The notes under the pieces are model-generated. The model was not told the DNA's origin and did no database searches. It saw nothing but the letters and a program-made list of their open reading frames with translations. From positions 10,882-74,881 of the forward strand of contig DAOLDD010000012.1 in NCBI GenBank assembly GCA_035327585.1: a DNA stretch of 64,000 nucleotides, read 5' to 3'. How positions within the stretch are numbered: the first letter of the stretch is position 1; each line of letters starts with the position of its first letter. Below are positions 1,725-16,374 of the stretch, piece by piece. The position numbers and the translations under genes are program-made. Source of the stretch: Kiritimatiellia bacterium (GTDB lineage: Bacteria; Verrucomicrobiota; Kiritimatiellia; CAIVKH01).

Positions 1725-3058
1725 TGCACACGGGCACCCATGCGTTGGTGTTGGGCCTTGGCGAGAGCGGCGCCCATGCGGCGAAGCTGCTGCTGCGCGA
1801 GGGGCTGCGCGTGACGATCTTTGAACAGCAGGTGCATCCCATGACCGCGGAGGCGTGGGTCGGGCTGGGCGGGCAGACGGTGGCTGCCGCTCCGGATGCG
1901 GCGATTCCCGCGGACGTGGATTTGTGCGTGGTGAGTCCCGGCATTCCGGTGGAACATCCCTGGCTGGCGTCCGCCCGCGCGCGGGGGTTGCACCCCGTGC
2001 CGGAGTTCGAGCTGGGCTGGAGCCGGTTCCGGGGCCGCGTGGCCGCGATCACGGGCACGAACGGCAAGAGCACGATGGTGAAGTGGATGGCGGAAAGCCT
2101 GCTCGCGTCCGGATTTCGCGCCGCGCCGGCGGGCAACTATGGGCCCAGTGTGAGCCGCGTGGTGTGCGAGCAGCCGGACCTGGACTGGCTGGTGATTGAG
2201 GCGAGTTCGTTCCAGTTGGAGACCGCGCGGCATTTTCGCGCCGACCTGTCCGTGCTGCTTAACATCGCGCCGAATCACCTGGACCGGCATCCGTCGATGG
2301 AAGCCTATGTGGACGCCAAGGCGCGCCTGTTCGCGCAGGTGCGGGGCCGGGATGTTTGCATGGCGCCGGCGGCGTGGCGGACGCGCATGCAGGCGGCGTC
2401 GGGCGGGCGTGGCGCCTGGTATAGCTTTGGTTGCGCGGCGACGGATGATTATCGCTGGGGAAACAGCTGTGTCCTGCATCGCGCGGATACCGTGCTGGAT
2501 GCGCGCGGAACCTTTCTCGACAACGCGATCCTGGGCCCGCATGCGGCGGCCGTGGCGGGCGCGCTGCACGCGGCGGGACTGCCGTTGGACGGAGCCGGGG
2601 CCGCGGCGCGCGCGTTCAAGTCGCTGCCTCATCGTATGGAGCCGGTCGCGGAGGCGGGCGGCATACGCTTCGTAAATGACTCGAAGGCGACCACGCTGAC
2701 GGCGATGCGCGCGGCACTCGAAATGGCCGGGGGACCGGTGCGGCTGATCGCGGGCGGATTGCTGAAAGAAACCGATTTGAATTGCGTCAAAGAAATGCTG
2801 GCCCTGCACGCCCGCGGGGTTTACCTTGTGGGGAAAGCTGCGGAAAAAATGGCTTCGCAGTGGGCGGATACCGTTCCTTGCGAGGTGTGCGGCGAGTTGG
2901 AGAAGGCGGTTGGTGCGGCGTGGCGGGCGGCGCGTCCGGGCGAGGTGATCCTGCTCTCGCCGGGTTGCGCGAGTTTCGACCAGTTTGCGAATTTTGAACG
3001 ACGTGGAGATGAATTTCGGCGCATCGCGAAAGCGCTGGCCGGGGAGCGAAAATCATGA
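1721..3058 (+). CDS. murD: UDP-N-acetylmuramoylalanine--D-glutamate ligase MurD
   Basis: GTG/ATG start overlaps the mraY stop. The N-terminal Rossmann domain (LVLGLGESG), the Mur ligase ATP motif GTNGKST and a C-terminal Mur ligase domain are present. Confidence 0.85.
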   Translation: MMHTGTHALVLGLGESGAHAAKLLLREGLRVTIFEQQVHPMTAEAWVGLGGQTVAAAPDAAIPADVDLCVVSPGIPVEHPWLASARARGLHPVPEFELGWSRFRGRVAAITGTNGKSTMVKWMAESLLASGFRAAPAGNYGPSVSRVVCEQPDLDWLVIEASSFQLETARHFRADLSVLLNIAPNHLDRHPSMEAYVDAKARLFAQVRGRDVCMAPAAWRTRMQAASGGRGAWYSFGCAATDDYRWGNSCVLHRADTVLDARGTFLDNAILGPHAAAVAGALHAAGLPLDGAGAAARAFKSLPHRMEPVAEAGGIRFVNDSKATTLTAMRAALEMAGGPVRLIAGGLLKETDLNCVKEMLALHARGVYLVGKAAEKMASQWADTVPCEVCGELEKAVGAAWRAARPGEVILLSPGCASFDQFANFERRGDEFRRIAKALAGERKS

Positions 3059-4068
3059 ACAACAAGCAACAGTGGAGTACGATCATGCAAGCGTCGGACG
3101 AACGTCGGAGCAACGTGCGGGGGCCCCTGCTGGCGGGCATCATTGCCGGGCTTCACGTGGTGGCAATTTCCGGTTTTCTGGTGATTCAGGGGTGCGGCAC
3201 GAAGCAGCCGATGGTTGAGCCGCCGCCGTCCCCGGTAATGCCGCCGCGCGGCGACGCAGGCGCGCCGCCCGCGGTGATGCCGCGTCCAAGTTTCCAGCCG
3301 CCGGTCGGTGTGGAACAGGCGCCGATGACAATCGAGGAAGCGTCCGTGCGCGTGCACACCGTTGCTGGCGGCGAATCGCTGGCCCGGATCGCAAACCGCT
3401 ACGGCGTGTCGGTGAGTGAGCTGGTGCAGCTCAATGGCATCAAGGACCCGAACAAGATTCGCGTTGGCCAGTCGCTGAAGCTGCCGAGCTATGCGTCGGA
3501 GTCCGCCGCCCCGGCCGCCGCCCCGAAACCGGTGAAGCCGAAGGTCGAGAAGGCATCCGCCCCGGCGGTCGCGGGTGACGGGACGTATGTGGTTCAGTCC
3601 GGCGACAGTTTGTCCAAGATCGCGTCGCGCCAGGGCACGACGGTGAAGGCGCTCAAGGAAGTGAACAACCTGCAGAGCGATGTGATTCGCATCGGACAGA
3701 AATTGAAACTGCCCGCGGGCGCAAAACCCGCCGCCGCCAAGCCCGCCGCCGCGAAACCCGCGCCCGCGCCTGAACCCGCTCCTGCCCCCGCGCCGGTCCC
3801 GGCGCCTTCCGTGCCCGACGCGACGATTCCGCCGCCGGTGACCGCGCCTGCGCCCACACCGGTTGCCGCGGCCGTCTCCGCGCCGGCGCCGTCGTTTGAT
3901 GCCGCCTCGATTCCGTTCGAATACACGGTGCGTCCCGGCGAGACGATTGATGACATCGCCCGGAACTTCGCCGTGCTCCGCCAGGACATCCTCTCGATGA
4001 ACGGCTTGTCCGAGGGTGCGACGGTGTCGGCCGGGCAGAAACTAAAGATCCCGATGTCCGCGCCCTGA
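3055..4068 (+). CDS. Secreted/lipoprotein-like protein with three LysM domains and a Pro/Ala-rich linker, with no peptidase domain
   Basis: Start overlaps the murD stop. Hydrophobic N-terminal segment followed by three LysM repeats (YVVQSGDSLSKIASRQGTTVKALKEVN..., etc.) and an (AAKPA)n / PAPAP linker. Confidence 0.7.
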   Translation: MNNKQQWSTIMQASDERRSNVRGPLLAGIIAGLHVVAISGFLVIQGCGTKQPMVEPPPSPVMPPRGDAGAPPAVMPRPSFQPPVGVEQAPMTIEEASVRVHTVAGGESLARIANRYGVSVSELVQLNGIKDPNKIRVGQSLKLPSYASESAAPAAAPKPVKPKVEKASAPAVAGDGTYVVQSGDSLSKIASRQGTTVKALKEVNNLQSDVIRIGQKLKLPAGAKPAAAKPAAAKPAPAPEPAPAPAPVPAPSVPDATIPPPVTAPAPTPVAAAVSAPAPSFDAASIPFEYTVRPGETIDDIARNFAVLRQDILSMNGLSEGATVSAGQKLKIPMSAP

Positions 4069-4086
4069 GCGGCGTTCGGACTTCCG

Positions 4087-4131
4087 TGAGGGGTCTTGTG
4101 CACGCAGGTGCAGGAGGCCCCTCATTTGTTT
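4087..4131 (+). terminator. Rho-independent-type terminator hairpin after the LysM gene
   Basis: Perfect 7-bp stem tgagggg/cccctca with an internal tgcac/gtgca sub-stem, followed by tttgttt. Direct repeats GTTAACGAG(T/C)GGCGG follow at 4128-4164 before the ftsW start. Confidence 0.45.
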
Positions 4132-4173
4132 AACGAGTGGCGGGAAATGGTTAACGAGCGGCGGAGTTGAGCG

Positions 4174-5307
4174 ATGTGGCGGACGACAACCATTTTGGTG
4201 ACGGCGGTATTGCTGCTGGTCGCGCTGGGCATCGTGATGCTGGCGAGCACGAGCGGCGTGCACGGCAACGCGCTATTCGGCGATCCCAACTATTTTGTGA
4301 AGCGTCAGGCCGCGGCGTTGGTCCTCGGGTTGCTGGCGGCCATCCTGGGCGCGCGCATTGATTATCAGGTCTGGAAAAAATTCGCCGTGCCCTTGGCGGG
4401 GATTACGTTTCTCCTGCTGGCCGCCGTGCTCGTCCCCGGCATCGGCATTGAGGTCAAGGGCAGCCGTCGCTGGATTTCACTTGGCGTGACGACGATGCAG
4501 CCATCGGAAATCGGAAAGGTGGCGCTGATTTTTCTGCTCGCATGGTGGATGAGCCGGGTGAAGCGCAAGGCGGGCGAGTTGGTGCCCGGACTGATCATTC
4601 CGGGCGCGTTGATGGGCGCGCTGATTTTGCCGGTGCTCGTGGGCCCGGACTTTGGCACCAGTATGCTCATGGGCGCGGTTGGATTCGCGATGCTTTGGGC
4701 GGGCGGCTCGCGGTTCAGCCATTTGGCGATCGCGGGCACGGGCGCGGCGAGTTTCATGACGGTCCTGATCATGCAAAACGAGGTGCGCATGCGGCGCATC
4801 ATCGCGTTCCTCGACCCCGAACGGTACGCGGACCGGGAAGCGTTCCAGTTGCTGAACGCCATTTACGCCTTCGTCATGGGCGGCAGCGGCGGGGTGGGGC
4901 TGGGCGCGAGTTTGCAGAAGCGGTACTACCTGCCGGAATCGCACACTGATTTTATTTTCGCGATCATCGGCGAGGAACTGGGTTTGGCGGCGTCGATGGG
5001 CGTGCTGCTCCTGTTTGCGGTTATCTTCGTGTGCGGGCTGCGCATCTCCGCGCGGGCGCCGGATTCCTTCGGACGTCTCGCCGCGCTCGGGCTCACCTGC
5101 ATGATTACGATCCAGGCGGCGATCAACCTCGGCGTGGTGACGGGTTGCCTGCCCACCAAGGGGCTGCCGCTTCCGTTCATCAGCTACGGCGGCACCAGCC
5201 TCGCCATCACGCTCGGCATGGTCGGCGTGCTGGTGGGCATCGCGCGGCAGGCGGGTGAGGACGGCGCTTCGCTCTCCGTCGTCCGCGACCGCGCACGGCG
5301 AGTTTAG
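4174..5307 (+). CDS. ftsW: SEDS-family peptidoglycan glycosyltransferase, FtsW-like (assigned from its position after murD)
   Basis: 377-aa multi-TM FtsW/RodA/SpoVE-family protein (GLPLPFISYGGTSL). The dcw context argues FtsW rather than RodA. Confidence 0.75.
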   Translation: MWRTTTILVTAVLLLVALGIVMLASTSGVHGNALFGDPNYFVKRQAAALVLGLLAAILGARIDYQVWKKFAVPLAGITFLLLAAVLVPGIGIEVKGSRRWISLGVTTMQPSEIGKVALIFLLAWWMSRVKRKAGELVPGLIIPGALMGALILPVLVGPDFGTSMLMGAVGFAMLWAGGSRFSHLAIAGTGAASFMTVLIMQNEVRMRRIIAFLDPERYADREAFQLLNAIYAFVMGGSGGVGLGASLQKRYYLPESHTDFIFAIIGEELGLAASMGVLLLFAVIFVCGLRISARAPDSFGRLAALGLTCMITIQAAINLGVVTGCLPTKGLPLPFISYGGTSLAITLGMVGVLVGIARQAGEDGASLSVVRDRARRV

Positions 5308-13320: not shown

Positions 13321-13644
13321 ATGCAAGCACGCCAGGCGCGCGAAGCGCTGCTGGCCAAAAAAGGCGAGCAGGTCACCCTGCTTGATGTTACGGGCCTCTC
13401 CCCGGTCACGGACTTCTACCTCATCGCAACCGGCAACAGCACGCCCCACCTCAAGGCGCTTGCCACCGAGGTGGAGAAGTCGCTCGCCGCGCATGGCGTG
13501 AAATGTTTCCGCCGCGCCGGCACGCCCGACAGCGGCTGGATCGTCGCCGACTACCTGGACTTTGTCGTCCACCTGTTCACCCAGGAACTGCGCGACCACT
13601 ACCAGTTGGAGCGCCTCTGGAGCGACGCAAAAGTCCTCGAGTAG
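13321..13644 (+). CDS. rsfS: Ribosomal silencing factor RsfS (Iojap family)
   Basis: 107-aa protein carrying the Iojap motif DFYLIATGNSTPHLKA...DYLDFVVHLF. nadD-rsfS is a conserved gene pair. Confidence 0.8.
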   Translation: MQARQAREALLAKKGEQVTLLDVTGLSPVTDFYLIATGNSTPHLKALATEVEKSLAAHGVKCFRRAGTPDSGWIVADYLDFVVHLFTQELRDHYQLERLWSDAKVLE

Positions 13645-13984
13645 CGAGGAGACCGGTTGTAGACGGGATGAACAGGATTTACGGGATGGGGGGGGAATTC
13701 TATCCCGTACCCGTAAACGTGCACGTACGCGTTCACGATCCGGAATACACAAACGTGAACGGGAACGTGAACGTGAACGGGACCGACGGGGAATGTTACC
13801 GATCCAGTCCATCCTGTAATCCCGTCCTTCTTCTTTCCGTGAACTCCGCGAATTCCGCGGTTTCATCAGCTCCGGAAGCGCCCGCACCACCATTTTCCGT
13901 AAGCGGGCTGGATTGTGTCGCGTTCTCCGGCTTCCCATCATCGCGATTCTGGTGCATAGTTCCGGCTCCACAGGAGGAGTGTCC

Positions 13985-15973
<1,989 letters not shown>

Positions 15974-15990: not shown

Positions 15991-16374
15991 ATGGCAAAGC
16001 AACCGTTGGGCATACGACTCGCGGACCACGCGAAGCAATTCATGCCGGTGCCCGCCGGCGGCAAGGTCTTCCAGGCCGGCCAGCCGGGCAACTGCATGTA
16101 CGCGGTGCGGACCGGCACCCTGCAGGTGCGCATCGGCAAGGCAGTCGTGGAGACGCTGGGCCCCGGCGATGTGTTCGGGGAGATGGCGCTGCTGAATGAA
16201 AATGAAGTCCGCTCGGCCACGGTCGTCGCCGTCACGGACAGCGAACTCGCGGTGATTGACGCGAAGCGTTTCGAATTCATGGTCAAGCATGTGCCGTCAT
16301 TCGCCATTGAATTGATGCGTATCCTCGCGGCGCGCCTGCTGGAGATGAACAAGCGCGTGCGCTCGCCGGCCTGA
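15991..16374 (+). CDS. Standalone cyclic nucleotide-binding (cNMP/Crp-like effector) domain protein, with no HTH
   Basis: 127 aa with a cNMP-binding fold signature (GDVFGEMALL, RSATVVA). Ends 3 nt before lplA. Confidence 0.6.
   Translation: MAKQPLGIRLADHAKQFMPVPAGGKVFQAGQPGNCMYAVRTGTLQVRIGKAVVETLGPGDVFGEMALLNENEVRSATVVAVTDSELAVIDAKRFEFMVKHVPSFAIELMRILAARLLEMNKRVRSPA

Follow-up and report, generated by a model that had tools for sequence, protein, structure and literature searches.

The question raised by this locus is what, if anything, a dense cluster of short repeats does in the 340-bp gap (13645-13984) that separates the stop codon of rsfS (13644) from the ATG of the acetate-CoA ligase gene acs (13985) in a Kiritimatiellia genome. 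The 64-kb stretch of DNA analysed, hereafter the window, is part of a contig of a metagenome-assembled genome (ENA ERZ794930). A sequence-only reading had taken the repeats for a transcription-factor binding array and/or a structured leader RNA controlling acs. We find that the repeats are not independent of one another: all of those listed are arms of a single foldback of ~165 nt (13662-13826). An operon-end structure, closing the gene block that rsfS terminates, is the more likely reading compared with a switch for acs control.

Direct reading and repeat searches recovered every repeat that had been listed. The motif ACGGGATG occurs at 13663-70 and again at 13681-88, the inverted repeats TACGGGAT/ATCCCGTA and TTTACGGG/CCCGTAAA lie at 13680-87/13702-09 and 13678-85/13710-17, respectively, and three palindromes overlap in a row (GTGCAC, 13719-24; CGTACG, 13724-29; ACGCGT, 13727-32). 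The motif CGTGAACG is found inverted once, at 13730-37, one base further on than the 13729-36 first assigned to it, and three times in direct orientation, at 13754, 13766 and 13772, consistent with the copies of AACGTGAACG at 13752, 13764 and 13770. That is, four of the eight CGTGAACG sites of the window are packed into 50 nt, and the motif is clustered nowhere else in it. Runs of seven or more G are depleted in the window (3 matches vs 21 expected from shuffles), two of the three matches being a G8 tract at 13688-95 and the remaining one a run at 61955-61; long G/C homopolymers in general are strongly depleted window-wide, these two being the only runs of that length. Taken together with the fold statistics given below, the clustering of CGTGAACG and the depletion of G runs indicate that the repeats exceed chance.

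Two tandem-repeat families account for the arrangement, a 9-mer (ACGGGATGA) and a 6-mer (AACGTG), each of which is present as a forward and a reverse array. Together they nest into a Y-shaped fold, the parts of which, with the sequence elements that build and follow it, are these:

13662-13826, + strand: the whole Y-shaped foldback (P1 and P2 as stems, A and B as hairpins, with a weak hairpin C), seen in folding, an outlier in a sliding scan and present in single copy
13662-69 / 13819-26, + strand: closing stem P1, 8 bp, pair probability 0.99
13672-78 / 13811-17, + strand: stem P2, 7 bp, pair probability 0.96
13680-91 / 13698-709 (13680-13709), + strand: hairpin A, 12 bp including 3 G-U pairs, loop GGGGAA, mean pair probability 0.66
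13710-14 / 13777-81 and 13717-37 / 13754-74, + strand: hairpin B, 23 bp formed from the hexamer arrays
13785-13809, + strand: hairpin C, weak
13663-13689, + strand: forward array of three 9-mers (ACGGGATGA ACAGGATTT ACGGGATGG), seen by Tandem Repeats Finder (TRF) as period 9 with 2.9 copies (13663-88)
13809-13826, + strand: two reverse 9-mers (CCATCCTGT AATCCCGTC), the 3′ arms of P2 and P1, from inverted-repeat searches
13717-13737, + strand: degenerate reverse hexamer array (ACGTGC ACGTAC GCGTTC ACG, by direct reading), part of a 28-nt inverted repeat that is 82% complementary
13752-13779, + strand: forward hexamer array, AACGTG x4.7 (TRF period 6, 90% matches), holding the three direct CGTGAACG sites and forming the 3′ arm of hairpin B
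13688-13695, + strand: G8 tract, stem top and loop of hairpin A, equal in length in three assemblies (L081, which is the window's own, L082 and L083)
13828-13836, + strand: T-rich tail TTCTTCTTT, beginning one base past P1 (direct reading)
13835-13866, + strand: third short array, the 9-mer TTCCGCGAA x2.8 (13835-59 by TRF), which folds into a small hairpin (GTGAA..CCGCG-AATTC-CGCGG..TTCAT)

The forward 9-mer array supplies the 5′ strands of both closing stems and of hairpin A, and the reverse-complement copies of the 9-mer fall at 13701-09, where one makes up the 3′ arm of hairpin A, and at 13809-17 and 13818-26. P1 and P2 together close the structure with 15 bp. The reverse hexamer array, which contains all three overlapping palindromes and the inverted CGTGAACG site, is the 5′ arm of hairpin B, and the G8 tract sits at the tip of hairpin A. 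In the tail, T occupies six of the eight bases of TTCTTCTT (13828-35, direct reading), and the small hairpin of the third array comes after it. Short tandem arrays make up ~60% of the region 13662-13866. The locus is thus a worked case of what looks like a binding-site array being in fact the paired arms of a hairpin built from repeats.

The predicted stability of the foldback is exceptional. As RNA it folds at -85.3 kcal/mol (z -4.66 against dinucleotide shuffles), with z -3.83 for the minus strand and z -5.77 when DNA parameters are used. In a GC-corrected sliding fold scan of 170-nt segments, the segment 13660-13829, placed by hand whereas the others lay on a 40-nt grid, was the top fold-energy outlier of the whole window on both strands (z -4.85 on the plus and -3.99 on the minus strand). 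The earlier suggestion of a structured element is borne out by these RNA and DNA values; the leader function that was attached to it fares differently, as shown below. Small open reading frames in the gap are only out of frame or antisense and of low complexity (RSRSRS, NVNGNVNVNG), and no credible peptide was found among them.

To what extent is the foldback shared? Five further loci have rsfS-acs synteny, with RsfS identities to that of the window of 96% (L084), 85% (L091), 83% (L088), 80% (L090) and 71% (L001). A genome search with Acs gave L001 as the sole close relative, and the matches listed in a metagenome search with RsfS reached 64% identity at best, almost all of them being distant homologues. 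The rsfS-acs gap measures ~153-221 bp in the five relatives compared with 340 bp here, so the gap may be called unusually long only in a relative sense. The foldback is absent from all five loci. Even in L084, the similarity ends upstream of ~13890-13918, ~245 nt of the window standing in place of ~92 unrelated nt. Among the loci compared, the foldback is therefore confined to one lineage, in which the three assemblies L081, L082 and L083 share an identical gap, G8 tract included, their populations perhaps not being independent. Conservation in relatives, whose lack had been named beforehand as telling against the proposed control of acs, was not found at any of the five loci: the repeat-rich ~245 nt are replaced in L084 and missing from the other four.

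Nor is the foldback repeated elsewhere in the sequence searched. No second copy was found in the window or in 80 Acs loci by BLAST-short, which returned chance 10-16-mers only, nor in a further 9.4 kb of the contig, and a covariance model of the foldback (R1) run over ~180 kb of Kiritimatiellia sequence matched only the foldback itself. Plasmid and phage collections gave no match either, and no target-site duplication is visible in the flanks (GGTTGTA on the left, CTTCTTC on the right). These results bear on the idea that the foldback is a small non-autonomous mobile element resembling a miniature inverted-repeat transposable element, with GACGGGATGAACAGGAT and ATCCTGTAATCCCGTC as imperfect terminal inverted repeats. 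A size of ~165 nt would be typical of such an element, the ends are indeed inverted repeats, and the exchange of ~245 nt for the ~92 nt of L084 could be read as an insertion. Its single-copy state, the missing target-site duplication and plasmid or phage match, and the fact that the supposed terminal repeats are themselves tandem 9-mers make this origin improbable. The Rfam search proposed with the first description found nothing at gathering score in the whole window and nothing credible at E<=10 in 13400-14200, where the best match was to a plant microRNA model (21 bits, gathering score 96).

What the six loci do share lies at the other end of the gap. Conservation is confined to the final ~55 nt ahead of the acs ATG, and the alignment of this part contains the invariant columns CTTyyCA and GCAkAsT, with zero indels between them, followed by AGGAGGAG and the ATG:

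13932-13960, + strand: probable acs core promoter, with -35 TTCCCA (13932-37), a 17-nt spacer and -10 CATAGT (13955-60), from the alignment of six loci
13972-13979, + strand: ribosome-binding site (RBS) AGGAGGAG, conserved in all six loci

The first of these is, to judge from its conservation, probably a sigma-70-like core promoter of acs. It agrees with the consensus at eight of 12 positions, A2 and T6 of the -10 among them, and remains under the threshold of the sigma-70 scan, which found no promoter in the gap; a terminator scan of the gap gave two terminator-like sites and no more, both on the minus strand and within rsfS or at its end. A sigma-54 reading of the conserved block was rejected on direct reading, there being no GG 10-11 nt upstream of the GC in TGCAT. 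Transcription of acs probably starts ~17-20 nt before the ATG. Since this conserved block of -35, 17-nt spacer, -10 and RBS lies downstream of all the repeats, acs appears to have its own promoter, and the repeats are probably situated upstream of its transcription start rather than in a leader. For acs regulation the repeats would accordingly matter little, the likely promoter being short, conserved and downstream, and the repeat part being unshared even with the nearest relative.

The position of the promoter block affects three ways in which the repeats could act on acs. The first takes the CGTGAACG/AACGTG repeats as operator half-sites for a regulator of acs, as the sequence-only reading had done. 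In E. coli, acs likewise has several short repeated motifs upstream, tandem CRP sites among them. Its promoter also includes three consecutive ArcA direct repeats spaced 11 bp centre to centre (PMC3798270). Four CGTGAACG sites within 50 nt would fit that picture, as would a conserved pair of 15-bp palindromes in the rsfS-acs gap of three of the five relatives (see below). The E. coli sites, though, are helically spaced and near the promoter, whereas the repeats here have a period of 6 or 12 nt instead of ~10.5 (direct-repeat operators of response regulators of the ArcA/PhoB type recur every ~10-11 bp), lie 150-220 nt upstream of the -35, are self-complementary and recur in none of the five relatives. 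Every direct array has its complementary inverted array, for which a stem is the simpler explanation; the motif shows no other cluster in the window; and the palindrome motif of the relatives is absent from the window's rsfS-acs gap. A binding array is thus unlikely. Readings of the GTGAAC/GTTCAC motifs as parS, Rex or alphaproteobacterial LexA (GAAC-N7-GAAC) sites were also considered, and discarded for wrong orientation and spacing.

A second possibility is that the acs transcript begins before 13662, or arises from rsfS read-through, with the fold acting as an attenuator responsive to a ligand or protein. A strong fold followed by a U-rich tail does resemble an attenuator, and the plus-strand fold includes 3-4 G-U pairs. 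With the promoter-like block downstream of the fold, no promoter-like site upstream of it in the scan, nothing comparable in Rfam and no counterpart in the five relatives, such a leader is very improbable. Least credible of the three is a slipped-strand phase-variation switch at the G8 tract. The tract does stand out, given the rarity of such G runs in the window, but it lies ~240 nt upstream of the -35, outside the promoter spacer and the open reading frames, and is merely the tip of hairpin A. No difference in its length was seen across the three assemblies, which are possibly from related samples.

The upstream side of the gap suggests a different role. The genes rodA, rng (RNase E/G family), nadD and rsfS are constant in order across all relatives, whereas the gene after rsfS changes: acs, metG, a HAD hydrolase gene, an SDR gene and an unknown open reading frame are found there, with non-acs neighbours at loci L087, L089, L172, L173 and L174. 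Because the block is constant while the next gene varies, rsfS marks the end of the conserved block, and synteny breaks in the gap behind it; in the gene orders available, the 3′ end of rsfS is a recurrent site of rearrangement. The foldback, an imperfect intergenic palindrome flanked by two co-directional genes, begins 18 nt past the rsfS stop codon, in the fast-evolving distal spacer between rsfS and the acs promoter. Hairpins are found on this side of the gap in some relatives as well: L084 has one followed by TTCCTTTTTC, scored as terminator-like by the scan, in L001 an interrupted GC hairpin precedes ATTTTTTC in the matching distal position, and L090 has a 20-bp perfect hairpin that begins near the rsfS stop codon.

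We therefore propose, with a probability of roughly 40%, that the foldback may be a lineage-specific, slippage-grown 3′-end terminator and insulator of the rodA-rng-nadD-rsfS operon. Replication slippage would expand the short repeat units, and hairpin-templated copying (template switching) would probably keep the two arms complementary. The foldback would be transcribed as the 3′ untranslated end of the operon, and the branched hairpin with its U-rich tail, assisted by the small hairpin that follows, would stop or weaken read-through into acs, which would have a promoter of its own. It could in addition shield the 3′ end of the upstream mRNA from exonucleases, in the manner of repetitive extragenic palindromic (REP) hairpins. 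Whatever its role, the locus indicates that inverted arrays of short tandem repeats can evidently become very stable foldbacks at operon ends.

A second repeat-built foldback, stronger still, was observed at 435-593 of the window, in the 159-nt gap between the murF stop codon (434) and the mraY ATG (594), an unexpected place for it inside the dcw cell-wall cluster. Its arms (438-472 / 547-581) are inverted heptamer arrays, GGTGTCG x4.3 against CCTGACA x4.3, that can pair in three registers, and its RNA folds at -75.3 kcal/mol (z -7.64). The murF-mraY gap in the genome of L090 is 73 nt long and has no arrays. On this comparison the heptamer arms are specific to the window lineage, and because a second foldback of this type exists in the murF-mraY gap and none in that of the relative, array-built foldbacks seem to be a habit of the window lineage. 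In all, there are two array-built hairpins in 73 kb of the window genome and none at the equivalent gaps in relatives.

Several observations weigh against a terminator. Both the C that interrupts the tail and the 150-nt branched insert enclosed by the stem are atypical for an intrinsic terminator, and the consensus terminator scan does not call the foldback; the scan requires a loop of 3-8 nt and so passes over a tail that follows a branched fold. In the first 20 kb it lists 20 terminator-like sites against 17.5 expected from shuffles, which is no enrichment and means that the scan has low power here. It found no hairpin-plus-T feature in L001 or L091, nor a suitably placed one in L090. Full termination would be harmful where the murF-mraY foldback lies, within the dcw cluster. 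Moreover, folds of the minus strand and of DNA come close to it in stability, so that an RNA role is not singled out, and the available copies of the foldback are all identical, leaving no covariation to analyse.

Many of the same facts would be expected of a neutral by-product, that is, a functionless spacer grown by slippage and template switching at the synteny breakpoint and tolerated outside the acs promoter. The foldback is single copy, is missing from L084 (despite its 96% identical RsfS) and from every other relative, and shows the same stability on either strand and with DNA parameters; the spacer consists largely of short tandem arrays, and the only other array-built foldback is in the same genome. 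We regard this as a real possibility, tempered by three points. Selected or not, a foldback as stable as this (-80 kcal/mol) in a transcribed spacer almost certainly alters the formation or stability of RNA 3′ ends; palindromes of such length in DNA tend to be lost unless there is some reason for their being tolerated; and the sequence of the foldback is identical in three assemblies.

The proposed operon-end terminator can be set beside several known systems. Intrinsic (Rho-independent) terminators include non-canonical branched or tail-poor forms in high-GC bacteria. Like them, the foldback has a GC-rich closing stem followed by a T-rich tract, past the last stop codon of an operon and before the promoter of the next gene; unlike them, its stem closes a 150-nt branched insert instead of a short loop, and the tail TTCTTCTTT has no clean U-run. 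REP elements with their bacterial interspersed mosaic elements (BIME), as well as enterobacterial repetitive intergenic consensus (ERIC) sequences, are multi-copy, dispersed intergenic imperfect palindromes of enterobacteria that can stabilise upstream mRNA or attenuate read-through. The foldback resembles them as a long imperfect palindrome between co-directional genes, with a size near that of ERIC (~127 bp), and differs in being single copy in the sequence searched and made of tandem 6- and 9-mers. In eukaryotic FB (foldback) transposons, long inverted arms are made of short tandem repeats; the arms here are likewise inverted short-tandem arrays with several pairing registers (three in the murF-mraY element), in a bacterial, single-copy structure that is an order of magnitude smaller and has no evidence of mobility and no transposase.

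The core of the murF-mraY foldback led to a feature that is shared with relatives. It consists of two 15-bp palindromes, TTACAACGTCTGTAA and TTCCAACCTCTGTAA, 32 nt apart, for which 0.06 matches are expected by chance. Pairs of the form TTMCA-N5-TGKAA (in one genome TTCCAA-N3-TTGGAA), always 31-32 nt from start to start, occur in gaps between co-directional genes at the following places:

Window: 483-497 / 515-529
L084: 826 / 857
L091: 2849 / 2880
L090: 2958 / 2990
L179: 9947 / 9979 and 19313 / 19345

The pair occupies the rsfS-acs gap in three of the five relatives (L084, L090 and L091), whereas the sole pair of the window is the one at 483/515 and its rsfS-acs gap (13645-13984) has the foldback instead. 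The genome of L090 (GCA_027493775.1) has further pairs in the murF-mraY gap and in the gap separating a small multidrug-resistance gene from a phosphoribosyltransferase gene, which brings its total to three in ~26 kb where none is expected by chance. The pair is kept at orthologous gaps (murF-mraY and rsfS-acs) among relatives whose RsfS is 80-96% identical to that of the window, while the spacer between the palindromes diverges. As far as these genomes can tell, the relatives carry a dispersed, position-stable palindrome-pair module, which the window lineage has lost from its rsfS-acs gap. The pair could be a REP-like element or a site for an abundant binding protein. A search for a degenerate copy of the module inside the foldback gave an AACGT core alone in common, on which we base no claim. 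An account that links the two types of element is that the window lineage builds hairpins from inverted arrays and that the foldback replaced an older palindrome pair, which is present at orthologous gaps across genera. Such pairs would be bound by a plentiful protein with affinity for DNA or RNA, perhaps as a tetramer or as two dimers sharing one helix face, and the foldbacks would be elaborations of such sites or substitutes for them; we consider the whole account doubtful. The palindrome pair nevertheless holds more potential than the repeats, as it could open the way to a nucleic-acid-binding protein particular to the clade, or to a REP-like system in a phylum that has received little study.

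The two genes that border the gap are confirmed by NCBIfam, and in the window acs is followed by a gene for a 127-aa cyclic nucleotide monophosphate (cNMP)-binding protein and by lplA (NCBIfam), the order being rodA, rng, nadD, rsfS, acs, the cNMP-binding gene and lplA:

13321-13644, + strand: rsfS, last gene of the rodA-rng-nadD-rsfS block (NCBIfam TIGR00090, 96.6 bits)
13985-15973, + strand: acs, acetate-CoA ligase, 662 aa (NCBIfam NF001208, 992 bits; TIGR02188, 947 bits)

The 127-aa protein (15991-16374), encoded directly after acs, is a stand-alone cNMP-binding domain that weakly resembles, far under the cut-off, the cyclic-nucleotide domain of Pat (NCBIfam NF058543, E 8.6e-09), the acetyltransferase that acetylates Acs in mycobacteria. 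A gene for such a protein also lies 3′ of acs in L084. This arrangement may point to a post-translational control of Acs linked to cyclic AMP. In L090, no gene is on record between rsfS and lplA (2932-5174), yet tblastn places the N-terminus of Acs at 3157-3453; acs may be frameshifted or uncalled there, or the annotation may have a gap.

Two further intergenic regions of the same contig attracted attention. At 4087-4166 of the window, just upstream of an FtsW/RodA-family gene at 4174, a GC-rich hairpin is followed by TTTGTTT (GTGAGGGGTCTTGTGCACGCAGGTGCAGGAGGCCCCTCATTTGTTT) and then by the direct repeat TTAACGAGYGGCGG, present twice, 21 nt apart; the plus-strand fold of this gap has z -4.5. 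Upstream of the window (L177, 2900-2960), the region preceding mraZ contains GTGGGGCAAAGTGGGACAAAGTGGGGCAG, with three GTGGG repeats 10 nt apart that we take to resemble the classic MraZ operator, and an AbiEii-family gene lies divergently upstream of mraZ.

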